DNA of 28,083 nt from Coriobacteriia bacterium (GCA_009779015.1 WRFC01000001.1:1-28083); one strand, 5' to 3'; shown: positions 1 through 27,147, numbered from the stretch's first letter. Translations and numbers: made by a program. The notes: generated from the sequence alone by a model not told the origin.

Positions 1-78
1 GAGCACGAGCACGAGCACGAGCACGAGCATGACCACGAGCACGAACATGACCACGGACACGGGCACGACCACAGCCAT
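1..78 (+). repeat. Degenerate 6-bp tandem repeat (GAGCAC-like) encoding the (E/D/G)H tract
   Basis: gagcac x4, gagcat, gaccac, gagcac, gaacat, gaccac, ggacac, gggcac, gaccac, agccat. Confidence 0.85.
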
Positions 79-667: not shown

Positions 668-2293
668 ATGTCGAATCGCTTTCGAGAGGCTTTGGAGTCT
701 GGCGAGTTCGTCGTTACCTGCGAGTTAATCCCAGGTAGGGGCGCAAACGAGCCGTCTCAGGTGAAGGAGTACGATGCCGCAGTAGCAATTTACGGGACTG
801 GTCGGGTACACGCAATCTCCATCACCGACAACCCAGGGGGAAACCCAGCAATTGCTGCTGATGCCTTCGCTGATGAGCTGGAGAATCAGGGTGTCCCGAC
901 ACTGGTGCACTTCACTTGCAAAGACAAGAACCGTAACCAGATGCAAGCCCAGCTGTACTCCATGCAGCGCCGCGGCCTCGAGAACCTGCTCGTAATGTCT
1001 GGCGATTACGTGTATTCAGGCTGGGAGGGGCGTTCGCGGCCAGTCTTTGACCTCGACCCGGTCCAGGCTACGATGCTGGTCACCGACATGAACTCTGGCC
1101 TCGTCATCAAAGGCCCAAAAGGCGACACGCGCGAACAAGCGGCGCATTTCTACTCGGGTGCTTGTGTCAGCCCCTTCAAATGGACAGAGGCCGAGACGAT
1201 GACCCAGTATTGGAAGATGGAGAAAAAGCTCGCTGCGGGCGCTAACTTCATCATCCAACAGCTTGGCTATGATGCCCGGAAGATGGAAGAGCAGCTCTTC
1301 TATGTCCGTGAAAAGGGCTACGGCGACGTCCCCATGATCGCCAATATCTATATCATCTCCGCCGGTGTTGCCAAATTCATGAAGGGTGGCAACATCCCTG
1401 GCGGCTTCATGAGCGACGAGCTTCTCGGAATCCTTCAAGAAGAGGCAAAAGCCGAGGATAAGGGCAAGGCCACTCGCTTGCTCCGGGCCGCCAAGATGGT
1501 CGCGATCGCTCGCGGCCTCGGTTATGCTGGCGTGCATATCGGTGGCAATGGCCTGACTGCCGAGATCTTCAACACGATCCTTGACCAAGCTGACGAGATC
1601 CAGGACCAATGGCGCGATTGGGTCAAAGAGATCCATTATGGACAGCCGGACGGGTTCTATCTCTACAAGCCCGAGCTGGATGCCAACGGCGTCCCTACCG
1701 GGTTCAATACGCATGAGCGTGCCCCGCTGACCGACAGCTATCACAACAAAAAGAAGATCCTCAAGGGCTACGGCCTTTCCCGCGCCTTCCATTATTGGGT
1801 CTTGACGCCAAACAAGCGCTTCTATGGCATGCTCCGTTCGCGCATGGATGGCCTGGACCGCAAGAAGGGCGTGAACCGCGAACACGGCTTAGAGCACACC
1901 TGCAAGGCCATGCTCTATGGCTGCATGGATTGCGGAGACTGCGGCCTCTTGGTCACGAGCTACACCTGCCCGATGTCCGGATGCCCAAAGAGCCAGCGCA
2001 ATGGACCATGCGGTGGCGGTGCCGATGGCTGGTGCGAGGTCTACCCGAATGAGCGCTATTGCATCCATGTCAAGAACTACCATCGGCGCAAGAAGTTCAA
2101 CGAGCTTGTAGAGCTTGATTCGTTCATCACTCCCCCCAACAACTGGGACTTCTCCCACACATCCGGGTGGAGCAACTATACCCATGAAAGAGATAACACC
2201 TACGGGCGGACTTATCTCCAAACACCGGACCAGCGGCCGCAGGCTGCCAAAAATAAAAGGACCGGAGCCGAAAACGAGAGTAAGGAGAGTTAA
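668..2293 (+). CDS. metF: Methylene-THF reductase (MetF) with fused C-terminal MetV-like (MTHFR_C) Cys-rich domain
   Basis: TCELIPG (catalytic Glu), ISITDNPGG, HFTCKDKN, VMSGD, GANFIIQQLGYD; C-terminal CMDCGDC..CP..CPKSQRNGPCGG..CEV..C. ATG at 668 follows a GGGAG SD; the ORF-track start at 593 is probably too long. Confidence 0.9.
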   Translation: MSNRFREALESGEFVVTCELIPGRGANEPSQVKEYDAAVAIYGTGRVHAISITDNPGGNPAIAADAFADELENQGVPTLVHFTCKDKNRNQMQAQLYSMQRRGLENLLVMSGDYVYSGWEGRSRPVFDLDPVQATMLVTDMNSGLVIKGPKGDTREQAAHFYSGACVSPFKWTEAETMTQYWKMEKKLAAGANFIIQQLGYDARKMEEQLFYVREKGYGDVPMIANIYIISAGVAKFMKGGNIPGGFMSDELLGILQEEAKAEDKGKATRLLRAAKMVAIARGLGYAGVHIGGNGLTAEIFNTILDQADEIQDQWRDWVKEIHYGQPDGFYLYKPELDANGVPTGFNTHERAPLTDSYHNKKKILKGYGLSRAFHYWVLTPNKRFYGMLRSRMDGLDRKKGVNREHGLEHTCKAMLYGCMDCGDCGLLVTSYTCPMSGCPKSQRNGPCGGGADGWCEVYPNERYCIHVKNYHRRKKFNELVELDSFITPPNNWDFSHTSGWSNYTHERDNTYGRTYLQTPDQRPQAAKNKRTGAENESKES

Positions 2294-3091
2294 ATGATCA
2301 TCATCGCCGAAAAGATTAATGGATTTATCAAGAGGACGATGGAAGCCATCGAGGCAAAGGACGAGGCCTATCTGAAGGAACTCGCCGTCAAGCAGACCGC
2401 CGGTGGAGCCAGCTACATCGACATCTGCGCAGGCACCATGCCTGAAGTCGAGCGCGAGACCATGGAATGGTTGATCAACCTCGTACAAGACACTGTAGAC
2501 ACACCACTGAGCATCGACAGCTCCGACCCGCAGGTCATCGTCGATATGCTCCCGTTGGCCAAAAAGCCTGGCCTGGTCAACTCGATCTCCATGGAGGCCG
2601 GCAAGGCTGAGACCGTGTTCCCGGCAATCGAGGGCACAGAGTGGAAAGTCGTCGCACTGACCTGCGACAACGACGGAATTCCGGATACTGCCGAAGCTAA
2701 GTTCGAAATCGGCAAGAAGATCATTGAGCAGGCCGCCGAATACGGCATCGGCCTTGACCGCCTCTTCATCGATCCATGCGTAACCACGCTTGCGACCACC
2801 CAGAACTGCCTGGTCAGCTTTATCGGCGCCATGAAGCTCCTGCGCGCTGCTTATCCGGGCATTCAGTTCACATCCGGCCTTTCGAATATCTCTTTTGGTA
2901 TGCCTTACCGCAAGGCCATCAACATGCAGTTCCTCGCCCTCGCCCTTTATGAGGGTATGGACAGCGCTATCATCGATCCGACCTCTTCTGACATGCAGGC
3001 CGTTCTGCATGCAGTCGAAGCCCTGCTGGGCCATGATGAATACTGCATGAACTACCTGACCGCCTTCCGTAATGGCATGTTCGGCAAGTAA
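2294..3091 (+). CDS. acsE: Methyl-THF:corrinoid methyltransferase (AcsE/MeTr family, pterin-binding TIM barrel)
   Basis: MIIIAEKING, YIDICAG, PLSIDS, LVNSIS, LFIDP, GLSNISFGMP. Abuts the metF stop, with AGGAG SD. Confidence 0.88.
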   Translation: MIIIAEKINGFIKRTMEAIEAKDEAYLKELAVKQTAGGASYIDICAGTMPEVERETMEWLINLVQDTVDTPLSIDSSDPQVIVDMLPLAKKPGLVNSISMEAGKAETVFPAIEGTEWKVVALTCDNDGIPDTAEAKFEIGKKIIEQAAEYGIGLDRLFIDPCVTTLATTQNCLVSFIGAMKLLRAAYPGIQFTSGLSNISFGMPYRKAINMQFLALALYEGMDSAIIDPTSSDMQAVLHAVEALLGHDEYCMNYLTAFRNGMFGK

Positions 3092-3266
3092 ACTTAGAGA
3101 CCAAGTACTATTGACAAGGGGTTTTGTCCAGGGCTTGATGAACCTTGGGCCTAAAAGTTCTAAATTTGAGGGTAACTGGGGTCTCATCAGCCCCAATCCC
3201 CCCTATCAGAAGTGCGGAATAGCAAGAACATCGTCTATGTCTTTTTGACAGAAGGAGTGACGTACT

Positions 3267-4943
3267 ATGGCAGAAATTAAATCCGATATCGAGATCGCGC
3301 AATCTGTAACGCCGCGTCAGATCACCGATGTCGCGGCCGACCTGAACCTCGACAAAGAGTATTTCGAGCCCTATGGCTATTACAAAGCCAAGATCGATTT
3401 TAATGTTTTGAACAAGATCGACCGTCCCGAGGGAAAGCTGATCCTCGTCACAGCCATTACCCCAACGCCTGCTGGCGAAGGTAAGACCACGACCACCGTA
3501 GGCCTTTCAGACGGCCTGAAGAAGCTTGGCAAGAACGTTGTCGTCGCACTGCGCGAGCCCTCGCTCGGCCCGGTCTTCGGCGTCAAGGGCGGTGCCGCTG
3601 GCGGCGGTTGGTCTCAGGTCGTTCCGATGGAGGACATCAACCTGCACTTCACCGGTGACTTCCATGCCATCAGCGCAGCCAACAACCTGCTCGCAGCCTT
3701 GATCGACAACCACATCTATCAGGGCAATGCCCTGGACATCAACGTCCGCAACATCACCTGGAGGCGCTGCGTCGACATGAACGACCGTCAGCTGCGCTTT
3801 ATCGTTGACGGCCTCGGTGGCAAGTCCAATGGCGTTCCGCGCGAGGATGGCTACGACATCACCGTCGCTTCTGAGATCATGGCCATCTTCTGCCTGGCCA
3901 CCTCGGTCACCGACCTCAAAGAGCGCATTGCGCGCATCATCATCGGCTATAACCGTGCAGGCGAGCCTGTCACGGCCGGCCAGCTGAACGCCCAAGGCGC
4001 CATGGCTGCCCTCCTCAAAGATGCCTTGAAGCCGAACCTTGTCCAGACCCTCGAGGGCACACCGGCCTTCGTCCATGGCGGCCCCTTCGCCAATATCGCA
4101 CATGGCTGCAACTCCATCATCGCCACCCGCATGGCCTTGAAGCTCGGCGATTATGCCGTCACAGAGGCTGGCTTTGGCGCTGACCTCGGTGCTGAGAAGT
4201 TCCTGGACATCAAGTGCCGTGTTGCTGGCCTGAAGCCTTCTGCTGTCGTCATCGTCGCCACCGTCCGTGCCCTCAAGATGCACGGTGGCAAGCCGAAGAC
4301 CGAGCTGAACACCGAGGACCTGGTAGCCCTGAAGGCCGGCCTCCCCAACCTGCTTCAACACGTCTCGAATATCACAGACGTCTTCCATCTGCCGGCAGTC
4401 GTGGCCATCAATGCCTTCCCAACAGATACCGCAGCTGAGCTCCAGCTGGTCGAAGACGAGTGCAAGGCCCTCGGCGTCAATGCCGTTCTGGCTGAGCATT
4501 GGGCAAAGGGTGGAGAAGGCGCCCTCAAGCTGGCCGAAGAAGTCATTCGCGTGACTGACGAGCCCAATAACTTCACGCAGTCCTATCCGCTCGATATGAG
4601 CATCGAGGATAAGATCAACGCCATCGCCACAAAGATCTATCATGCAGACGGTGTGGACTATACCCCGCAAGCCAAGGAGCAGGCGAAAGTCCTGACCAGC
4701 CTCGGCTTTGACAAGCTCCCGATCTGCATGGCCAAGACACAGTACTCATTCTCTGACAATATGGCCCTTTTGGGTGCCCCCAAGGGCTTCAGGGTCACCG
4801 TACGCAACCTCAAGGTCTCGGCCGGCGCTGGTTTCATCGTCGCACTGACAGGCGAGATTATGACGATGCCTGGCCTGCCCAAGCTGCCTGCGGCTGAGAA
4901 GATCGATGTCGATGCCAGTGGCGTGATCTCAGGACTGTTCTAA
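3267..4943 (+). CDS. fhs: Formate--tetrahydrofolate ligase
   Basis: [68 protein letters not shown]; 558 aa. Confidence 0.98.
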
Positions 4944-4945
4944 TA

Positions 4946-5581
4946 ATGGACACTGCGTTCACAAAACGCTCCTGCGAAGACTTCGTTGATGTCCTCGCAT
5001 CGGCTGCACCGGTGCCCGGTGGCGGCGGCGGCTCAGCATTGGCTGGTGCGCTTGGCACCGCCCTTGGCAACATGGTCGGATCACTGACTGTCGGTAAGCC
5101 AAAGTTTGCTGATGTCGAGGCCGATATGATCGAGCTCAAAGCAAAGTGCGACGACTTGCAAAGACGATTGCTTGACTTGGTGGCCGCAGATGCCGAGTCT
5201 TTTCAGCCTCTCTCCAAGGCCTATGGCCTGCCCAAAGAGACAGAAGAGGAGAAGGCGCATAAGGCCGAAGTAATGGAGGCCTGTCTGCGTGAGGCTTGTT
5301 CTGTGCCGATCGCGATCATGGACGCCTGCTGCGAGGCCATCGATGTACACGAGCAATTTGCCGCTAAAGGCACGCCGATCGCAATCTCAGATGTCGGCGT
5401 TGGCGTGAAGTTCTGCCAAGCTGCTCTACAAGGTGCAAGCCTGAACGTCTTTATCAATACGTCTTCAATGACTGACCGGGCTTACGCCCAAGAGGTCGAA
5501 GACAAGGCAAACAAGCTTCTGGCAGACTATGTGCCAAAAGCCGAATCGATCTTCCAGGACGTTGCTCGACGTTTTAAGTAA
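4946..5581 (+). CDS. fchA: Methenyl-THF cyclohydrolase (FchA; cyclodeaminase/cyclohydrolase family)
   Basis: FVDVLASAAPVPGGGGGSALAGALG, D-A-E-S-F, AISDVGVG, LNVFINT; 2 nt after the fhs stop. Confidence 0.88.
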   Translation: MDTAFTKRSCEDFVDVLASAAPVPGGGGGSALAGALGTALGNMVGSLTVGKPKFADVEADMIELKAKCDDLQRRLLDLVAADAESFQPLSKAYGLPKETEEEKAHKAEVMEACLREACSVPIAIMDACCEAIDVHEQFAAKGTPIAISDVGVGVKFCQAALQGASLNVFINTSSMTDRAYAQEVEDKANKLLADYVPKAESIFQDVARRFK

Positions 5582-5593
5582 ACTCTCGAACAG

Positions 5594-5628
5594 AAAAAGG
5601 GACATGCCCGGGCATGTCCCTTTTTTTT
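5594..5628 (+). terminator. Intrinsic terminator between fchA and folD (possibly bidirectional)
   Basis: AAAAA-GGGACATGC-CCGG-GCATGTCCC-T8; 5594-5625 is a perfect palindrome. Confidence 0.8.
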
Positions 5629-5651
5629 ACGAGGATAAGAAAGGAGCCAAT

Positions 5652-6503
5652 GTGGCTACGGTACTCAAAGGGGCTGAGGTGTCAGAAGCCCTGAACACGA
5701 AGATCATGGAAGAATCTGAGGCGCTGAAGGCCATGGGCGTCAACCCGACATTAGCGATCCTCCGGGTCGGCGAGCGCGGAGATGATATCTCTTATGAAAA
5801 GGGAGTGACCAAGCGTGCAGAGAAAGTCGGGGTGGCTATCAAGAACGTATTGCTCCCCGCAGATGTCGCTCAAGAAGTTTTAATTAAGGCTATTGAGGAC
5901 CTGAACGCGGACAAATCCGTTCATGGGGTCTTGATGTTCCGCCCGCTCCCAGATCACCTTGATGAAGACGTTGTGAGAAACATGCTCGAGCCGAGCAAGG
6001 ACATTGACGGCATTACCGATGCTTCGATGTCTGGGGTATTCGCAGGCATCCATACGGGTTTCGCACCTTGTACGCCATCCGCGTGCATGGAGATCCTTGA
6101 GCATTTTGGTGTTGACGCAAAGGGCAAGCATGCAGTGGTAGTCGGCCGCAGTCTTGTGGTTGGCAAACCTGCAGCCATGATGCTTTTAGACCGAAACGCC
6201 ACAGTCACTATCGCACACTCGCGGACAGCAGACCTCCCATCAGTCGTCCGTGAGGCTGATATCGTGATTGCTTGTGTCGGTCGCGCGAAAATGGTAGAGG
6301 CAAGCTACCTGAAACCTGGGCAGATTGTCATTGATGTGGGTATCAATGTCTTAGAGGATGGCTCGTTGTCTGGAGATGTTGACTTTGAGGCGGCTTCATC
6401 GATCGTCGAAGCCATCACGCCTGTCCCAGGCGGTGTCGGAGCCGTGACCACAAGCGTGAACTTAAAACATGTGGTCGAAGCTGCGCGCAATCAAAACAGT
6501 TAA
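5652..6503 (+). CDS. folD: FolD-family methylene-THF dehydrogenase, probably lacking cyclohydrolase activity
   Basis: KDIDG, PCTP, VVVGRSLVVGKP, AHSRT, VIDVGIN, GDVDF, ITPVPGGVG. GTG start at 5652 after AAGGAG; the ORF-track start at 5529 runs through the terminator. Confidence 0.93.
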   Translation: MATVLKGAEVSEALNTKIMEESEALKAMGVNPTLAILRVGERGDDISYEKGVTKRAEKVGVAIKNVLLPADVAQEVLIKAIEDLNADKSVHGVLMFRPLPDHLDEDVVRNMLEPSKDIDGITDASMSGVFAGIHTGFAPCTPSACMEILEHFGVDAKGKHAVVVGRSLVVGKPAAMMLLDRNATVTIAHSRTADLPSVVREADIVIACVGRAKMVEASYLKPGQIVIDVGINVLEDGSLSGDVDFEAASSIVEAITPVPGGVGAVTTSVNLKHVVEAARNQNS

Positions 6504-6533
6504 CAAGAAACTCGAAGAGCAAGACAATAAAAT
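6503..6533 (+). promoter_or_regulatory. Putative promoter of the FNT gene (same architecture as the metF and mtaB promoters)
   Basis: ACAAGAA (6503-6509), 18 nt, TAAAAT (6528-6533). Confidence 0.4.
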
Positions 6534-6633
6534 TACGATGAACATTAGAGCTTTGATCTATCAAGGCTCTAATGTTTCTTACCTCAAAACGTTTTAATGG
6601 CATTACCAAGGCAAGAGGAGGAGGATCAAGCTC

Positions 6634-7536
6634 ATGGATGATAACGATATTATTAAGGAGATCAGGCAAGATGTCGCGGCCATTCGACCAGATGTTTTAG
6701 TGCCATCAGAAATCGTTGCAAAAGCCGAAGCGATCGGCCACGGAAAAGCCAATACAGAGTTCTTAAGGTTGGCTGTATTAGCGGTGATGGCCGGCTTGTT
6801 TGTCGGTATGGGCGGAATGTTCTTGCTCTTGATCAAATCAGATACGAGCCTCCCCTACTTTGCCAGCCAAATACTCGGTGGCCTTTGCTTTTGCCTAGCC
6901 CTTTTCTTGGTCGTAGCCGCCGGAGCCGAGCAGTTCGCAGGCAACACCTTGATGGTCGTCGGAAGCCTGTCCAAAAAATACAGCTGGGGCAGCCTTTTGC
7001 GGACTTGGGGCATTGTCTGGGTGTTTAACTTCGTTGGATCGCTGCTGCTGGTCTTCCTCCTCTTCTTTGCTGCCTATTGGAAGGCCGACGGAGGCGCCAT
7101 TGGGGTCGCTATGGTCACAGTCAGCCTAGACAAGATCGCTCAAGGTCAAGCCAGCCTGGGGCCGTCCGGCTGGGTGACTATCCTTTTTAAGGGCATTATG
7201 TGCAACTTCCTCTTTGGCCTGGCTGTTTGGATCGGTTACTCAGGACGCACCGTTGTCGACAAGCTGGCAGCTATCGTATTGCCAGTGACAGCATTCGTGG
7301 CCTGTGGCTTTGAGCACAGCGTCGCTAACATGTTCTTGCTTCCGATGGGGTGGCTGATCAAGGTCACTGGGGTCATCGACACCTCGGCCATCAGTGGCAT
7401 CAACATGCTGTCGGTTGGTGGGATCTTCTATAACATCTCTGCCGCCACAATCGGGAACATCATCGGTGGCGCTGGCCTGGTCGGGTTATCCTATTGGTTG
7501 GCCTACCGGAAGAGTCAGAAAGTAAAAAATTCCTAG
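6634..7536 (+). CDS. Formate/nitrite transporter (FNT, FocA/FdhC family) with non-canonical pore residues
   Basis: AVMAGLFVGMG, GAEQFAGN, GNxVGS-like NFVGS, KGIMCN..LAVW, FVACGFEHSVANM, TIGNIIGG; six hydrophobic segments; GGAGGA SD. Confidence 0.92.
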   Translation: MDDNDIIKEIRQDVAAIRPDVLVPSEIVAKAEAIGHGKANTEFLRLAVLAVMAGLFVGMGGMFLLLIKSDTSLPYFASQILGGLCFCLALFLVVAAGAEQFAGNTLMVVGSLSKKYSWGSLLRTWGIVWVFNFVGSLLLVFLLFFAAYWKADGGAIGVAMVTVSLDKIAQGQASLGPSGWVTILFKGIMCNFLFGLAVWIGYSGRTVVDKLAAIVLPVTAFVACGFEHSVANMFLLPMGWLIKVTGVIDTSAISGINMLSVGGIFYNISAATIGNIIGGAGLVGLSYWLAYRKSQKVKNS

Positions 7537-7828
7537 TAATTATCCCTGTCAAAAATTGAATGCAGCTATACCGTTCACGGTTGAACATTATCCACTCACA
7601 GAGGGAGGTTTTGCCTTGAAGCGGCAGAGCTGTGAAATAGAAGGTTTAGATTTCAACTTCGTTAAAAAAGGGTTACAATGTTTTTCTGCATTGTTATGTC
7701 ATGGTTTAAGGATCAAGATGATTTGCGGGCTTGCTCCACGAATTGACTGAGGAGTCGGGAGCAAATAATCAATTGCTTATAAAGGGAGAGGGCAATTTTC
7801 GCATTAGCAGGTCCAGGGAGGGCTTACA

Positions 7829-9097
7829 TTGCAGTTTGATTCGCTTAGGGATTATTCTCTGATTACCGGCATTGGAATACAGGTTGTAAACAGGAATGGT
7901 GTAGCCTCTTTTGCTACTGACCAATATCTGAAAACCCAGGATGCCTTGTTATTTCTTGCTAATTTACTGAATGTCGGCCATCTGACCGAAGCCGTAAAGG
8001 TCAAGAGCCTGATTCGCTCTACCGAGTATGGCGGTTTATATACCTTCCTCGATCCACGCGGCCTGACTTTTATTACGGCGCCGATCTCCAAAGGGCAAAA
8101 CTGTAACCGTTTTGTCATTGGCGGCCCGATCATCCTATCTGATTTAGATGATTATCTGAATTTCGAAGTGCTGCCTCAGGCCAATAACTCTAGCTTCGGA
8201 CCGCAAAAAGTCCGCGAGATCGTTTCCGCAATCCCCGTCTGCACTCCATCGCTGGTCTCAGCTTTCTCTGAACAGCTTTTTGTGAACTCAGCATTCATCA
8301 ATGGCGGTAATACCAACCAGTCCAGCCCGTCAGATAAACTCCTCTACAATTTTGTTGATAACTACGACTACACTGACAACGTCGATCTGCCAAACCTGCG
8401 GATAAAAAGCTATATGTACGACAGCCAAAGAGAGGTCGATGAGCAATATCGCCTTCTCAAGACGCTCAAGAGCCAAGAGGAGCTGCAGGCCAAGATCCTG
8501 TTAAACGAGATACTCGAGCAAATCCTCTTTCACCCGCGTAACAACCTGGACTTCATTAAAAGCCGCGTTGTCGAGCTCTTGACGATCATGACACGCTCAA
8601 CGATCAGTAATGGCGCTGATGTGAAGATGGCGACTTTTATTCGTAATAAGGCATTTGTGGAGATCGAAGAACACAAGACCCTTGATGACATTGTGATCTG
8701 GCTGAACGAGCTTTTTGAGCGTTTCTCCTCACATACTTTTAAGAACCCACACTCTAAGCACGCTGACGCAATCAAAGAGTCATTGGCTTACTTGCTCGAG
8801 CATTTCAGCGAGAAGATCACCTTGAATGACGTGGCCGCGCATGTCTCTTTTAGCCCGACCTATCTTTGCACAATGTTCAAAAACGAGATGGGCCAAAGCT
8901 TTAAAAGCTGCTTGAACCGCATCCGCATAGAAAAAAGCAAAGAGTTGATGCCAAATCACGATCTCAGCATTGCCGATATCAGCTACAAAGTCGGTTTTGC
9001 AGATCAAAGCTATTTTGCGCGCGTCTTTAAACAATACGAAGGCATTACGCCTTATCACTACCGGCTCACAAGCAAGCCGACAGGCGCTGAAAAGTAG
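7829..9097 (+). CDS. AraC-family transcriptional regulator with N-terminal PocR-like sensor domain
   Basis: C-terminal ITLNDVAAHVSFSPTYLCTMFK...SIADISYKVGFADQSYFARVFKQYEGITP (AraC HTH); N-terminal TGIGIQVVNRNG and GLTFITAPI...IGGP resemble PocR. TTG start after GGGAGG. Confidence 0.85.
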   Translation: MQFDSLRDYSLITGIGIQVVNRNGVASFATDQYLKTQDALLFLANLLNVGHLTEAVKVKSLIRSTEYGGLYTFLDPRGLTFITAPISKGQNCNRFVIGGPIILSDLDDYLNFEVLPQANNSSFGPQKVREIVSAIPVCTPSLVSAFSEQLFVNSAFINGGNTNQSSPSDKLLYNFVDNYDYTDNVDLPNLRIKSYMYDSQREVDEQYRLLKTLKSQEELQAKILLNEILEQILFHPRNNLDFIKSRVVELLTIMTRSTISNGADVKMATFIRNKAFVEIEEHKTLDDIVIWLNELFERFSSHTFKNPHSKHADAIKESLAYLLEHFSEKITLNDVAAHVSFSPTYLCTMFKNEMGQSFKSCLNRIRIEKSKELMPNHDLSIADISYKVGFADQSYFARVFKQYEGITPYHYRLTSKPTGAEK

Positions 9098-9244
9098 TCG
9101 GCTTTCAGATAAATCGACGAGGCTTTGTCGATGCCAGATTTCGTAAATTGAGCGAGGAGCCTGAGCCCCCGTTAAATGAGTTTTGCTGAAAAATGGATTA
9201 GTTGTATTTTATTCAGCTCAAGGTAATTTCCTACGGATTGTTCA

Positions 9245-9285
9245 GAAATAATTACAAGAAAGAACGTAGACAGCAGCCTTACACT
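9245..9285 (+). promoter_or_regulatory. Putative activator-dependent promoter of mtaB
   Basis: GAAATAATTACAAGAA (9245-9260; 13/16 identical to the metF copy), 19 nt, TACACT (9280-9285). Confidence 0.45.
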
Positions 9286-9346
9286 AAAGCTAGTGCTTGG
9301 GCAAACAATATCCATTTTGAATCGATTCTGAAGGAGATGTGAGCTT

Positions 9347-10744
9347 ATGGGAAAAAAGAGCTATACCACAACCGCATATACCAATGTAGATGATTTTATC
9401 TATGGTAAAGCGGTTACCCCCGTCACCACAAAGCGGGGTCTCGTAATTGGTGGAGGCAAGGTGTATCCAGAGGTAAACTTCACCCTGCCGACAATGCTCG
9501 TTACCAAAGAGACGATGCCGGAAGTCCTGGACATTTACAGGGAGATCGCAGACGGCATCTGCGCCCGTGCAGTCGATCTGGAGCTTGAAGGCGTCCAGCT
9601 AGAGTGCGAATGGGTACCCCAAACGACATTTGAGCCTGAGTGGGGCATTCAGCACATGCAGGTCATCGAAGAGGTAGTCGAAGGCTACTATCAGAAGTAC
9701 GGCCTGAAGGGCTCTATCCGCTCAACGCCAGTCGATGTCCGTGAAGTTGGCGCGGCAGAAGGCCTAGAGCATATGTGGCACGGATCGCTCTGGGACAAGG
9801 TTGTTCGGTCCATGGAAGGCAGCGCGGCTGCTGGTAACGACTTCCTCTCCATCGAGTCAATCGGCGGCAAGGATGTCCACGACGAAGGTCTGATGTACAA
9901 CGATATAAGCAAGATCATCTTTGCCCTTGGCGTTCTTGGTGCCAAGGATATGGAAAAACTGTGGGGCATGATCGTCGACGTCGCAGCCAAGCACCCCGGC
10001 TGCCGTGCTGCTGGCGACACCGCCTGCGGTTTTGCCAATACCGCTATGGTTTTGGCTGAGCAGAACTACATTTCCCGCGTCTTCGGCGCCACCGCCCGCG
10101 TTGCCGCTACTGTCCGCACCATGGTTGCCAACCAAATGGGCGCCACCGGTCCGGACAAGGACTGCGGTTATGAGGGTGTCATCGTCAAGGCCATCACCGG
10201 TACCCCGGTCACGATGGAAGGCCATGTGGCTTGCGTTGCCCACCTTTCTCGCGTTGGTAATGTTGCGATTTGCTGCGCCGACCTTTGGAGCAACGAGTCA
10301 ATCCAGCACATTAAACTGCTCGGTGGCTGGGGCGAGGTTGTCGGACTTGAGCAGCTCACCTATGACTGCCGTCTTCTCAATGGCGCCCGTGACAAGGGTT
10401 GGGACCATGAGCTTCAATCTCTGTATGCTGATAGCGATAGCTACCTTGATCCTCATGCTTACATCCTGCGTCCGGATGTCGCGCTCGAGATTGCCAAGGG
10501 CATCGTCTCTGCTCCTGACAATGCATTCCTGCGCGTCAAGAAGGCCGTCGAAATGGCCCTTAAGGTTATGCGTCAGGGCTACAACGACAAGCGTCTGCGC
10601 TTGAACGACCGTGAGCTTTCTGCTCTTGGCCAGCTTGAGGACGATTTAGGTGCTATCACTGATGATGAAGGCGCCTTCACCGAGGAGCAGATTGCCTCGA
10701 ATAGCGACAATCCGAAATTCAAGCCGGCTCTCTACGATCTGTAA
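9347..10744 (+). CDS. mtaB: Methanol:corrinoid methyltransferase (MtaB family)
   Basis: DDFIYG..PVTT..GLVIGGG..YPEVNFTLP, FLSIESIGGK (E170), AAGDTACGFANTAM (C227), GPDKDCGYE (K271/C273), WSNES, EQLTYDCRL, DPHAYILRPD. These match the recalled MtaB Zn ligands (Glu/Cys/Cys) and the bacterial MtaB N-terminus. Confidence 0.93.
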   Translation: MGKKSYTTTAYTNVDDFIYGKAVTPVTTKRGLVIGGGKVYPEVNFTLPTMLVTKETMPEVLDIYREIADGICARAVDLELEGVQLECEWVPQTTFEPEWGIQHMQVIEEVVEGYYQKYGLKGSIRSTPVDVREVGAAEGLEHMWHGSLWDKVVRSMEGSAAAGNDFLSIESIGGKDVHDEGLMYNDISKIIFALGVLGAKDMEKLWGMIVDVAAKHPGCRAAGDTACGFANTAMVLAEQNYISRVFGATARVAATVRTMVANQMGATGPDKDCGYEGVIVKAITGTPVTMEGHVACVAHLSRVGNVAICCADLWSNESIQHIKLLGGWGEVVGLEQLTYDCRLLNGARDKGWDHELQSLYADSDSYLDPHAYILRPDVALEIAKGIVSAPDNAFLRVKKAVEMALKVMRQGYNDKRLRLNDRELSALGQLEDDLGAITDDEGAFTEEQIASNSDNPKFKPALYDL

Positions 10745-10795
10745 ACCGATTACTTGCAGAACAAAAGTCAGAGTTGATTAAGGCTCTGGCCGAAC

Positions 10796-10836
10796 AGCAG
10801 ACCGGATCCCGAGAAATTCGGATCCGGTCTGCTTTC
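10796..10836 (+). terminator. Strong hairpin downstream of mtaB, likely terminator
   Basis: AGCAGACCGGATCC...GGATCCGGTCTGCT, a 14-bp perfect stem followed by TTCT. Confidence 0.7.
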
Positions 10837-11027
10837 TGACTATCAAGAAATAGGCCGTTAGCAAAGGAGGGGTCTTTTTTTCGCCTGCAATGCTGTATGG
10901 CTTGATATCATATTGTGTGGAGGGGTTTTCCCAGTATTTATGTTATTTTTCACCCAGCTATAGGCTGTATTTCATTGATAATATCTGAAGCTTGTTTCTC
11001 AGGAGTGGAGTATCAGGAGCAGAGAAG

Positions 11028-11639
11028 ATGCCAGAAGCAAAGGTCATCAGGAAGAAAAAGTTGCGGAGCAAGGCTTTGGCGGCGAGAAGTGCCATGACAG
11101 CAATCGAAAGAGACGCATGTAGCTCTCGGGTCTGTATGCAACTGAAGGCCAGGTTAAACGAGCTTATGGACCGCCGTTTTCAAGCACCAGCAACAATTGC
11201 CGTCTATGCCGCCATGGGCGACGAGCTAAACCTTGCGTCTTTTATCGCCTCAGCATACAGTATGCCTAATATCACTGTCTGCTTCCCTTGCATGGAGCCA
11301 CGCGGAGACCAGAAGATGTCAATGCGTAGAGTCGCGCACACCAACTATATGGCCGGTGCAGTCCCATTTATTAATAACCCGCTTGAAGTGTTTAGCCCAC
11401 GCAGCCAAAAACTCTTGCCCTATACGCGTGTCAACCCCAAGATAATTGACTTTATTGTGGTGCCGCTTGTCGCTTTTGACGATTTTGGCAATCGCCTTGG
11501 CTATGGTGGCGGAAATTATGACCGCTTTCTCCCGCTCTTACGCAAAGATACGACGATCATCGGTGTCGCCTTTGAGGCCCAACATCTCGACGGGTTGCCA
11601 ATTGAAGAGCATGACGTTCCTCTGAGTATTATTGTTTAG
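11028..11639 (+). CDS. 5-formyltetrahydrofolate cyclo-ligase
   Basis: KKKLRSKALAAR, IAVYAAMGDE, VCFP, IDFIVVPLVAFDDFGNRLGYGGGNYDRFL, LPIEEHD. ATG at 11028 after AGGAG. Confidence 0.9.
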   Translation: MPEAKVIRKKKLRSKALAARSAMTAIERDACSSRVCMQLKARLNELMDRRFQAPATIAVYAAMGDELNLASFIASAYSMPNITVCFPCMEPRGDQKMSMRRVAHTNYMAGAVPFINNPLEVFSPRSQKLLPYTRVNPKIIDFIVVPLVAFDDFGNRLGYGGGNYDRFLPLLRKDTTIIGVAFEAQHLDGLPIEEHDVPLSIIV

Positions 11640-11676
11640 ATTGGGTTTTCGGGTTTTTATAAGCTAGAAGCCCTAG

Positions 11677-11756
11677 AAAAAACCGAGGCCATTAGCCTTT
11701 CCGAACAAACTGCCAAATTCTTTTTGACAGACTCCACGGATTGCTAATGGCCTCGG
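11677..11756 (-). terminator. Long-loop inverted repeat between convergent genes; probable terminator for the activase gene
   Basis: CCGAGGCCATTAGC (11683-11696) and GCTAATGGCCTCGG (11743-11756) form a perfect 14-bp IR. A6 at 11677-11682 gives a U-tract on the minus strand. Confidence 0.5.
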
Positions 11757-11782
11757 CTCAATTACATCAATACTGCAGTAGC

Positions 11783-13327
11783 TCAGACCTCAAAATACAT
11801 GTTTGTAATGAACTGGTCATCAAACATCTCATGTGCGGCCAAGTTGATCTCGTGACCGCCCTCTGCCAGGTCAACGAGGCCAGCCCGGGCACTTTCGTTC
11901 AAGCACGCTTTAACAGCGCCACTGAGGGAACTGTTACCGATCGCCTGAACGCGCCCAGAAAAGCTCTTGGGCAGCATTCCTGTTGTCAACGCACTTTCTG
12001 GGTTCAGGTTCTGCCCAAAACCACCTGCTAAAAAGACCTTCTTCGGAATATCCCCGCCCATCACGGCCATAATGATCTCTAGGCCTGAACGTGTAGCGCT
12101 CTTTGCCAATTGGAACTGGCGCAGGTCCTTCTGCGTGAAATAAACCTCGCCGCTATCCAGCGCTGGATTCTTGGCCAACACGATGCGACCGTTCTCGACC
12201 TTGTCGGTCATCAACCCTGTCTCGTCAATAAACCCTTCGCGCACCAATACCGCCATCAAGTCCAAGATGCCAGACCCGCAGATGCTCGTTGGCGGAGCAG
12301 CACCGATCGTCTGCAGCTTCCACTCGCCATTCTCGTGCTCGACCACTGAGATGGCGCCCTTTGTGCTGCCAGAGCCGCACTCGATGTTTCCTCCCTCAAA
12401 GGCTGGGCCGGCTGCCGTAGCCGTGCAGACCAGCTGATCGCCACGTTTGAAAATCAGCTCGCCATTCGTACCCATATCCATCAGGATGAAGTCATCTTCG
12501 GCACCCAGCGAACAGAGGCCGGAGGTCAAGTCGCCGCCGACATAGGCAGAGATGAACGGCATCACAGTGACATCGCAGTCTAAGGTATCTGTCTTAAAAA
12601 TATCCTTGTATTTTTGATCGACCGGATAATAGTAGTCCGGCTCAAATGGCACAAAGCCAAGCGAGCGGCACGGGGCGTTCAAAAGGATATAGGTCATTGT
12701 TGTGTTACCAGCGATTACAACGCGTTTGATCTGGCTTGAATCGACCCCGCTGTCCTTGATCATATTGGCAATGTCCTTGTCAATCTGCTTTGTCACAATC
12801 GCCGAGAGCTCAGAGGCATCGTCGAGCGAGACATTAATGCGTGATATGACATCGGCGCCATAAGGCAGCTGTTCATTCAATTGGGCAAACGAAGCAAGCT
12901 CGCCGCCTGTTTTCAAGACAATCAGCTTGCCCACGATCGTCGTTGTTCCAATGTCCACGGCGATTGCCAGATCTGAGGCAAGCGCATCGTCAATACTTCC
13001 TTCATCGATGTATTCGCCCTCGCGTGGGCCATCCGAGTCAACCTGGATGGCATAGCCTTCGTCACTCTCTTGGCTCGGTATCAGGACCTCAACATCCTCC
13101 ATCACGTATGTCCGGCAAGATAGGCGTTTCTTTCCGTTTACCCTGACCACGCACTTTCCACAACGACCGATTCCTCCACAATCGGCATGCAACTTAAAAT
13201 TCTCTTCGCGAATGATCTCGAGTAGGTTCTTTCCGACCTCTACATCAAGCTCAACGCCTTCTTCCGGAAATTTGACATGTCTTTTTTCTTCGCTCACAAC
13301 TACCCCTTTCGGATGCTGCGTCAACAT
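11783..13327 (-). CDS. ASKHA-domain reductive activator of corrinoid proteins (RACo/RamA-like) with N-terminal [2Fe-2S] domain
   Basis: ADCGGIGRCGKC...RLSC (2Fe-2S), AVDIGTTT, YGADVISRI, YVGGD, MDMGTNGEL, ATAAGPAFEG, ICGSG, FQLAKSA, LAGGFG, GNSSL. The real start may be GTG at 13297. Confidence 0.92.
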   Translation of the reverse strand: MLTQHPKGVVVSEEKRHVKFPEEGVELDVEVGKNLLEIIREENFKLHADCGGIGRCGKCVVRVNGKKRLSCRTYVMEDVEVLIPSQESDEGYAIQVDSDGPREGEYIDEGSIDDALASDLAIAVDIGTTTIVGKLIVLKTGGELASFAQLNEQLPYGADVISRINVSLDDASELSAIVTKQIDKDIANMIKDSGVDSSQIKRVVIAGNTTMTYILLNAPCRSLGFVPFEPDYYYPVDQKYKDIFKTDTLDCDVTVMPFISAYVGGDLTSGLCSLGAEDDFILMDMGTNGELIFKRGDQLVCTATAAGPAFEGGNIECGSGSTKGAISVVEHENGEWKLQTIGAAPPTSICGSGILDLMAVLVREGFIDETGLMTDKVENGRIVLAKNPALDSGEVYFTQKDLRQFQLAKSATRSGLEIIMAVMGGDIPKKVFLAGGFGQNLNPESALTTGMLPKSFSGRVQAIGNSSLSGAVKACLNESARAGLVDLAEGGHEINLAAHEMFDDQFITNMYFEV

Positions 13328-26716: not shown

Positions 26717-26727
26717 GCCGTGTGACG

Positions 26728-27147
26728 ATGGCTGAGCTTGTTCGCTTTAGCGTCGCCATGCCCGAAGACCTGCTAGAGCAGTTCGACAGCCTGGTGGAGA
26801 GGCGTGGCCTGGCCAAGAACCGTTCAGAGATCATCCGGGACCTGGTGCGCGATGCCTTGGTCGAAGAGCAGTGGCACGACCCAGACGCCGTGATCGTGGG
26901 CACGCTGACCTTGATCTTCAACCATCACGCCAACGACCTGCAAAACAAGCTTGACCACATCCAGCACACGGCGCACCAACTGATCATCTCGTCCATGCAT
27001 ATCCATTTGGATGCCCATAACTGCCTAGAGATCATCGCCATGCGCGGGCGCTCTGAAGAGATCAGGAAGATCTCCGAGAGCCTTCTGGGGGTCAAGGGCG
27101 TCAAGCATGGCTCGCTGACTGCCACAACCACGGGTACCGGCCTCTAA
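26728..27147 (+). CDS. nikR: Nickel-responsive regulator NikR
   Basis: RFSVAMPEDLLEQFD..NRSEIIRDLVR (ribbon-helix-helix); IQH and MHIHLDAHNCLE carry the His/His/His/Cys Ni ligands. Confidence 0.95.
   Translation: MAELVRFSVAMPEDLLEQFDSLVERRGLAKNRSEIIRDLVRDALVEEQWHDPDAVIVGTLTLIFNHHANDLQNKLDHIQHTAHQLIISSMHIHLDAHNCLEIIAMRGRSEEIRKISESLLGVKGVKHGSLTATTTGTGL

Follow-up and report, generated by a model that had tools for sequence, protein, structure and literature searches.

A methanol methyltransferase cluster and a likely route from methanol to acetate in a termite-gut lineage of the Coriobacteriales

Introduction

Can a gut actinobacterium live on methanol and, if it does, would it release formate or acetate? 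The question is raised by a stretch of 28,083 nt of DNA, here called the window, from a Coriobacteriia bacterium (GCA_009779015.1, WRFC01000001.1:1-28083), which is the entire contig C1 of the metagenome-assembled genome (MAG) G000 obtained from a termite-gut metagenome. Encoded within it are the methanol:corrinoid methyltransferase MtaB and the full methyl branch of the Wood-Ljungdahl pathway, that is a formate-tetrahydrofolate (THF) ligase (Fhs), a cyclohydrolase, a dehydrogenase, a methylene-THF reductase and a methyltransferase (MeTr). A preliminary description of this locus had read it as a module for the partial oxidation of methanol to exported formate. We report that the same genome also encodes acetyl-CoA synthase, which makes acetate rather than exported formate the likely product. 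With a probability of roughly 0.6 we read the cluster as part of a methanol-fed Wood-Ljungdahl metabolism (methylotrophic acetogenesis) in a termite-gut member of the Coriobacteriales, in which the methyl branch would run partly in reverse. The type of metabolism is familiar; what is unusual is its host.

The Wood-Ljungdahl pathway has been described in Coriobacteriia-related MAGs, namely soda-lake Coriobacteriaceae, OPB41, and serpentinite and hot-spring lineages (PMC6146748; PMC7325909; PMC9686372). No mention of methanol methyltransferases was found in the reports consulted on those MAGs, and full-text literature searches returned nothing on methanol use in Coriobacteriales or in termite-gut Coriobacteriia.

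Materials and Methods

Domains were called by listing open reading frames (ORFs) and scanning them with Pfam and NCBIfam profiles against the curated cut-offs. The MAG G000 comprises 1.1 Mb in 194 contigs with a G+C content of 0.607, and its completeness is 59% (contamination 0.3%). Among the relatives used for comparison G407 is 93% and G412 90% complete, and G401 belongs to the same genus as G000. A 116-kb contig (L046) of the ENA assembly ERZ27257295 served, with the ENA gene calls, as comparison sequence from the same strain.

Results and Discussion

The ten genes named in the preliminary description were all found, none of them disrupted, and their Pfam and NCBIfam E-values, which range from 1e-17 to 1e-271, exclude chance matches (Table 1). 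The chain that it had drawn, from methanol through CH3-corrinoid, CH3-THF and the further folate intermediates to formate, is thus encoded. The window MtaB aligns over its full length with the enzyme of Methanosarcina barkeri (2I2X chain A; E 9e-82), belongs to the same fold family, and places E170, C227 and C273 at the Glu/Cys/Cys positions of the zinc ligands, which we take to be E164, C220 and C269 in the numbering of the 2I2X paper; the motifs SIESIGGK, AGDTACG and KDCGYE are conserved. On the archaeal NCBIfam equivalog MtaB_Meth it scores 422 bits, below the cut-off of 720, and we take this to be the behavior of a bacterial MtaB clade on a model built from methanogen sequences. The closest MtaBs outside the Coriobacteriales are those of Clostridia, to which it is 53-56% identical and within whose radiation it is nested; among them is the enzyme of Clostridium formicaceticum, a methanol-using acetogen. 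Neither the alignment nor the zinc-ligand residues nor the tree gave any sign of a non-methanol paralogue, and the protein belongs with the methanol enzymes, with methanol as its predicted substrate. Unlike in M. barkeri, where the methyl group goes to coenzyme M, the acceptor of the methyl group here would be THF.

No MtaC gene, which would encode the corrinoid partner of MtaB, was found inside the window. Two such genes lie directly upstream on contig C24, whose end meets the start of the window: the end of C24 (G000:C24:9100-9207) and window positions 1-30 overlap in a GAGCAC (His-Glu) repeat. The assembly broke inside the (GAGCAC)n repeat of a gene for a His-rich protein, and C24 and C1 are contiguous. 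The 116-kb contig, which matches both at 99.97-100% identity, gives the order as ABC transporter, MtaC1, MtaC2, CobW, His-rich protein, MetVF (the fused methylene-THF reductase), MeTr, Fhs, FchA, FolD and the FNT-family channel, followed by AraC, MtaB, cyclo-ligase and the reductive activase RACo; this join places MtaC1, MtaC2 and CobW in the cluster. Both MtaC proteins are B12-binding and carry the DxHxxG motif; C24 and the 116-kb contig agree in placing their genes 3 kb upstream. The CobW GTPase carries a P-loop and a CxCC motif. The His-rich protein, whose gene is intact on the 116-kb contig (L046:10001-10534, 177 aa) directly after that of CobW, matches no Pfam family and is a probable metal-handling partner. 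In total G000 encodes five MtaC-like proteins, and in the relatives one MtaC-like gene always adjoins the cluster, with MtaC adjacent to mtaB.

The preliminary description had seen neither carbon monoxide dehydrogenase/acetyl-CoA synthase (CODH/ACS) nor formate dehydrogenase (Fdh) in the cluster, which holds for the cluster itself. For CODH/ACS it does not extend to the genome: contig C2 (8597-15401) carries two cooC genes, acsA, an acsB-acsD fusion and acsC, together with a second, longer RACo and a DUF3786 gene. The fusion joins acsB and an AcsD-like CdhD domain in one ORF of 1175 aa (G000:C2:10542-14069, L015) and recurs in G407 with 80% identity. A binning artefact as the source of this acs cluster was rejected, since it is syntenic with that of G407 and 70-80% identical to it, a divergence like that of the window cluster (74-87%); on these grounds it belongs to the same organism. 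Genes for Pta (C4:10578-11579) and Ack (C7:6461-7621) are present as well. A complete acetogen with CODH/ACS, which the preliminary description had named as an outcome that would overturn its reading, is therefore largely what this genome encodes, with acs on C2, Pta and Ack in place and Fdh seen only in relatives. MtaB and ACS occur together in G000, G407 and G410, in the last of these on one contig and 16 kb apart.

Two further observations were made on the acs loci. The acs cluster of G410 is separate and far more divergent (40-45% identity), so that two ACS types exist in one family. Directly upstream of cooC/acsA in G000 (G000:C2:4869-6898, L015) lie genes for a protein with a homocysteine S-methyltransferase domain and for a 369-aa protein without Pfam or NCBIfam match, both of which are kept in place in G407 (74-75% identity).

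In the methanol systems of Firmicute acetogens the second methyl transfer (MT2) is the task of MtaA, a member of the URO-D family. No URO-D/MtaA protein (PF01208) was found in G000, in G401 or in the 93%-complete G407, and the only pterin-binding proteins of G000 and G407 are FolP and the MeTr of the cluster. This makes the AcsE-like MeTr the candidate for a shared function, as MT2 for MtaC and as AcsE-type methyl donor to the corrinoid iron-sulfur protein (CoFeSP).

In the scheme that we infer, for the direction of flux as for the fate of formate, the zinc enzyme MtaB would methylate Co(I)-MtaC, and MeTr would move the methyl group to THF and would also mediate methyl exchange between CH3-THF and the CoFeSP that serves acetyl-CoA synthase. 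RACo would re-reduce oxidized corrinoid, and CobW and the His-rich protein would probably load metal. The bulk of the CH3-THF would enter the CODH/ACS encoded on C2 and yield, through Pta and Ack, acetate and ATP. A lesser share would be oxidized to formate by running MetVF, FolD, FchA and Fhs in reverse, with a gain of one ATP at Fhs, and this oxidation would provide the electrons for the reduction of CO2 to CO. The formate in turn would be oxidized by an NAD-linked Fdh, as in close relatives, or the FNT channel would exchange it with the gut lumen.

The last of these steps bears directly on the export of formate as the end of the pathway. That methanol is oxidized only to formate, which leaves through FNT, with ATP from Fhs, the four electrons going to H2, to a partner or to respiratory reductases, and ACS having no role, appears to us rather unlikely. 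In its favor, the pathway is encoded, an FNT gene is part of the cluster, molybdopterin reductases are numerous in the genome, and no Fdh was detected in G000 and neither ACS nor Fdh in the 90%-complete G412. A search of five family genomes for pyruvate formate-lyase (PF02901) gave no match, which means that the channel does not serve that enzyme. The FNT gene lies about 2.5 kb or less from fhs in six family genomes, a linkage which suggests formate as its substrate; three of the six have no detectable MtaB, and in G407 the same cluster has no FNT gene at all, two facts that speak against this reading. That the genome also encodes Pta, Ack and the complete set of acs genes weighs further against it, as does the evidence on Fdh from relatives. 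In G401 a pair of genes for FdhA and FdhD stands directly upstream of araC-mtaB (the Fdh is partial, 463 bits), and G407 combines MtaB and ACS with a true Fdh (846 bits) that has a NuoF-like gene beside fdhA. When the FdhA of G407 was used as query in a protein search, none was returned from ERZ27257295, the assembly of the strain itself; 77%-identical ENA proteins came from the sister samples ERZ27257302 and ERZ27257304, in operons of NuoE-like, NuoF-like and FdhA genes, with FdhD next in one of them.

Beside these findings on Fdh it may be mentioned that a tRNA-Sec gene (G000:C106:660-757) adjoins a gene for a molybdopterin oxidoreductase which by score is not an Fdh. The organism probably makes selenoproteins.

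Several results weigh against methanol-fed acetogenesis and have to be set beside it. No Fdh above the TIGR01591 cut-off was found in G000, a finding whose force is limited by the completeness of this MAG. G412 has MtaB, MetVF, Fhs and FNT, and neither ACS nor Fdh was detected in it, so that in some relatives the module may work outside acetogenesis. No Rnf complex (searched as RnfD) was found in five family genomes, and what the genome offers for energy coupling is an Ech-like group-4 NiFe/NuoD-like subunit on C107, present as a fragment only; coupling runs perhaps through an Ech-like hydrogenase. Finally, FNT and araC are without metatranscriptome contigs, a lack which proves nothing, and coverage by RNA-library contigs is not quantitative. 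The hydrogenase-like fragment has as its neighbor the gene for the fifth MtaC-like corrinoid protein (G000:C107:86-2560, L008).

The same electron economy brings up respiration. In Desulfitobacterium and Desulfofundulus methyl groups serve as donors for anaerobic respiration, and respiratory reductases are typical of Coriobacteriales. Eight molybdopterin enzymes, NapA-, PhsA- or dimethyl sulfoxide (DMSO)-reductase-like and including one NapA-like protein at 815 bits, were counted in the 59% of the genome at hand, and these, together with the lack of a detected Rnf, could point to the methyl groups of methanol and methylamines being oxidized from CH3-THF to CO2 with the electrons passing to such reductases and ACS being assimilatory only. 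We consider this improbable: Pta, Ack and the full ACS cluster are present, and a quinone-linked route from MetVF was not identified. A combination is unlikely too, if conceivable for part of the family. Members without Fdh, possibly including this strain, would follow 3 CH3OH + 2 CO2 -> 2 acetate + formate, and members without ACS, such as G412, would turn methanol into formate and hand the electrons to respiratory molybdoenzymes. Substrate-level phosphorylation at Fhs and Ack would supply the ATP, and formate exported by FNT would feed other gut acetogens or methanogens.

The activity of the locus was addressed with one termite-gut metatranscriptome, in which contigs of at least 99% identity span the greater part of mtaB and sections of metVF, meTr, fhs, folD and RACo (the last at 12313-12513). 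The best covered gene of the locus is mtaB, which is represented over nearly its whole length; the tad genes that adjoin the cluster had no contig coverage. A DNA run covers the stretch at an even depth of about 75-90x, and the contrast between this even depth and the patchy RNA contigs, with tad uncovered, speaks for transcription and against a carry-over of DNA.

The transcript data also bear on the possibility that the cluster is mainly reductive, taking formate through FNT, or formate made from CO2 and H2, to CH3-THF for acetogenesis, with MtaB as an occasional side entry. Termite guts are rich in formate and H2, HypF and NikR are encoded nearby, in G407 an [FeFe] hydrogenase is encoded close to the cluster, and the occurrence of the MetVF-Fhs-FchA-FolD-FNT cassette without MtaB is widespread in the order. 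Against this, mtaB is the very gene with the best transcript coverage, and the locus has its own regulator, its own activase and two MtaC genes, which indicates that methanol is used regularly. We regard a mainly reductive role as improbable, and as the branch is reversible, reductive use would in any case be compatible with methanol-fed acetogenesis.

As to the host, the preliminary description had suspected a Coriobacteriia-like organism and not a Firmicute, and both lines of placement bear this out: the nearest named relatives are termite-gut MAGs labeled 'Coriobacteriales bacterium' or 'Actinomycetes bacterium', and the genome library puts G000 in a MAG-only family of an order that also contains large gut genera. 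MtaB was found in five of the 24 other genomes of this family; a sample of 400 further genomes from the class yielded none. In a Firmicutes-dominated set the MtaBs of the family form a single well-supported clade that is sister to one from Clostridiales Family XIII; since the tree is rooted at its midpoint and has few taxon labels, it cannot name the donor. The genes of the cluster have a G+C content of 0.46-0.58 as compared to a genome median of 0.626, with 0.59-0.61 for the acs genes. Together, the tree and the low G+C are consistent with horizontal acquisition of the cluster from a Firmicute. The genes from FolD to RACo (window 6634-13327) and both mtaC genes, at 0.46-0.55, do not rise above the 5th percentile of the long ORFs of the genome (0.554), which fits a later horizontal acquisition.

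The pairing of MetVF and Fhs is common across the order. Because this pairing and the linkage of FNT to fhs are also found in relatives without MtaB, the cluster looks like an older formate/THF cassette, including FNT, that was later joined by MeTr, araC-mtaB, RACo and mtaC-cobW. The MetVF-Fhs-(FchA-FolD)-FNT cassette recurs in G402:C141, G409:C147/C148, G410:C99, G415:C120 and G420:C230, and its carriers include family members in which neither MtaB nor ACS is detectable. In G420 (L040, G420:C230) fhs and mtaB are each broken into two or three matches that lie in different frames, and they are either pseudogenes or assembly errors.

With the Firmicute acetogens that were compared (Acetobacterium woodii, Eubacterium limosum/callanderi, Sporomusa ovata, Moorella thermoacetica, and C. 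formicaceticum) G000 shares MtaB, a DxHxxG-type MtaC, the reductive activase, Fhs/FchA/FolD/MetVF, CODH/ACS, Pta and Ack. It differs from them in its actinomycetotal (Coriobacteriales) host, in the fusion of MetF and MetV, in the lack of a detected Rnf and of a detected MtaA, which leaves the AcsE-like MeTr as the sole MT2 candidate, in carrying genes for an FNT channel and for 5-formyl-THF cyclo-ligase within the cluster, and in the union of methanol genes and methyl-branch genes in one cluster. A bacterial-type CODH/ACS and a folate branch are shared with the soda-lake, serpentinite and hot-spring actinobacterial MAGs; unlike those inhabitants of extreme environments, this is a termite-gut lineage.

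The features of the window are collected in Table 1. The regulator had been called PocR-AraC; its AraC helix-turn-helix (HTH) part stands, and the PocR domain remains below threshold (16.5 bits against a cut-off of 23.9). In relatives its gene is always directly upstream of mtaB, and the pair is kept in L026, L027, L037, L039 and L040. The flanking block of tad, nikR and hypF was found as previously described.

Table 1. Features of the 28,083 nt window, with profile scores and, where given, curated cut-offs.
Feature	Position	Strand	Evidence and remarks
His-rich protein, C-terminal 152 of 177 codons	1..459	+	start and (His-Glu)n tract on C24
MetF-MetV fusion, methylene-THF reductase, 541 aa (ENA gene call)	668..2293	+	PF02219 63 bits, PF12225 82.7 bits, single ORF
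MeTr, AcsE-like methyl-THF:corrinoid methyltransferase, pterin-binding	2294..3091	+	PRK07535 323 bits (cut-off 259)
Fhs, formate-THF ligase	3267..4943	+	PF01268 900.7 bits; NF010030 918 bits (cut-off 652)
FchA, methenyl-THF cyclohydrolase	4946..5581	+	PF04961 227.7 bits; FchA equivalog 201 bits, below cut-off 275
FolD-family methylene-THF dehydrogenase, 283 aa	5652..6503	+	PF00763, PF02882
FNT-family channel, probably for formate	6634..7536	+	PF01226 205 bits; TIGR04060 FocA 194 bits, below cut-off 290
AraC-family regulator, large N-terminal sensor region	7829..9097	+	HTH_AraC (81 bits), HTH_18
MtaB, methanol:corrinoid methyltransferase (MT1)	9347..10744	+	PF12176 517.7 bits (cut-off 25), profile positions 2-460 of 460
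5-formyl-THF cyclo-ligase (folate salvage)	11028..11639	+	PF01812 107 bits; TIGR02727 116 bits (cut-off 84.9)
RACo-type reductive activase of corrinoid proteins, N-terminal 2Fe-2S domain	11783..13327	-	PF00111, PF17651, PF14574
tad pilus genes	14.8-24.9 kb	-	window scan
NikR	26722-27147		window scan
HypF, start of gene	27170 to window end		window scan

Outside the window the genome holds a complete pyrrolysine cassette of the bacterial type. The minus strand of contig C20 (1740-6133, L050) carries a tRNA(CUA) together with pylSc, pylB, pylC, pylD and pylSn, and each of the five Pyl proteins exceeds its NCBIfam equivalog cut-off. The tRNA-Pyl was found by ARAGORN only at a relaxed threshold, and Rfam found no tRNA near pylS. 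Two methylamine methyltransferase genes, mtmB on C35 and mttB on C4, each contain one in-frame TAG (G000:C35:1594-1596 and G000:C4:15442-15444) after which the frame continues to full length; these are presumably the canonical pyrrolysine positions of the methanogen enzymes. PylS also occurs in G410 and G412. In the literature searched we found no report of pyrrolysine in Actinomycetota, Coriobacteriales included, and this cassette may be more novel than the methanol cluster. The stretch G000:C4:10578-16566 (L011), close to which a MerR regulator is encoded, contains genes for Pta, a DUF1638 protein, a permease for amino acids, a corrinoid protein and the MttB with the in-frame TAG, and looks like a trimethylamine-type methyltransferase island beside the acetate pathway.

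Conclusion

Methanol released in termite guts by the breakdown of pectin and lignin is usually assumed to feed methylotrophic methanogens. If methanol-fed acetogenesis in this lineage is true, there would be a bacterial sink for this methanol which yields acetate, the main fuel of the termite, in place of methane, and it would reside in a lineage that is abundant, at about 80x DNA depth. Methylotrophic Wood-Ljungdahl metabolism would thereby be extended to gut Actinomycetota, in an apparently MtaA-free layout in which one MeTr may serve both MtaC and CoFeSP.

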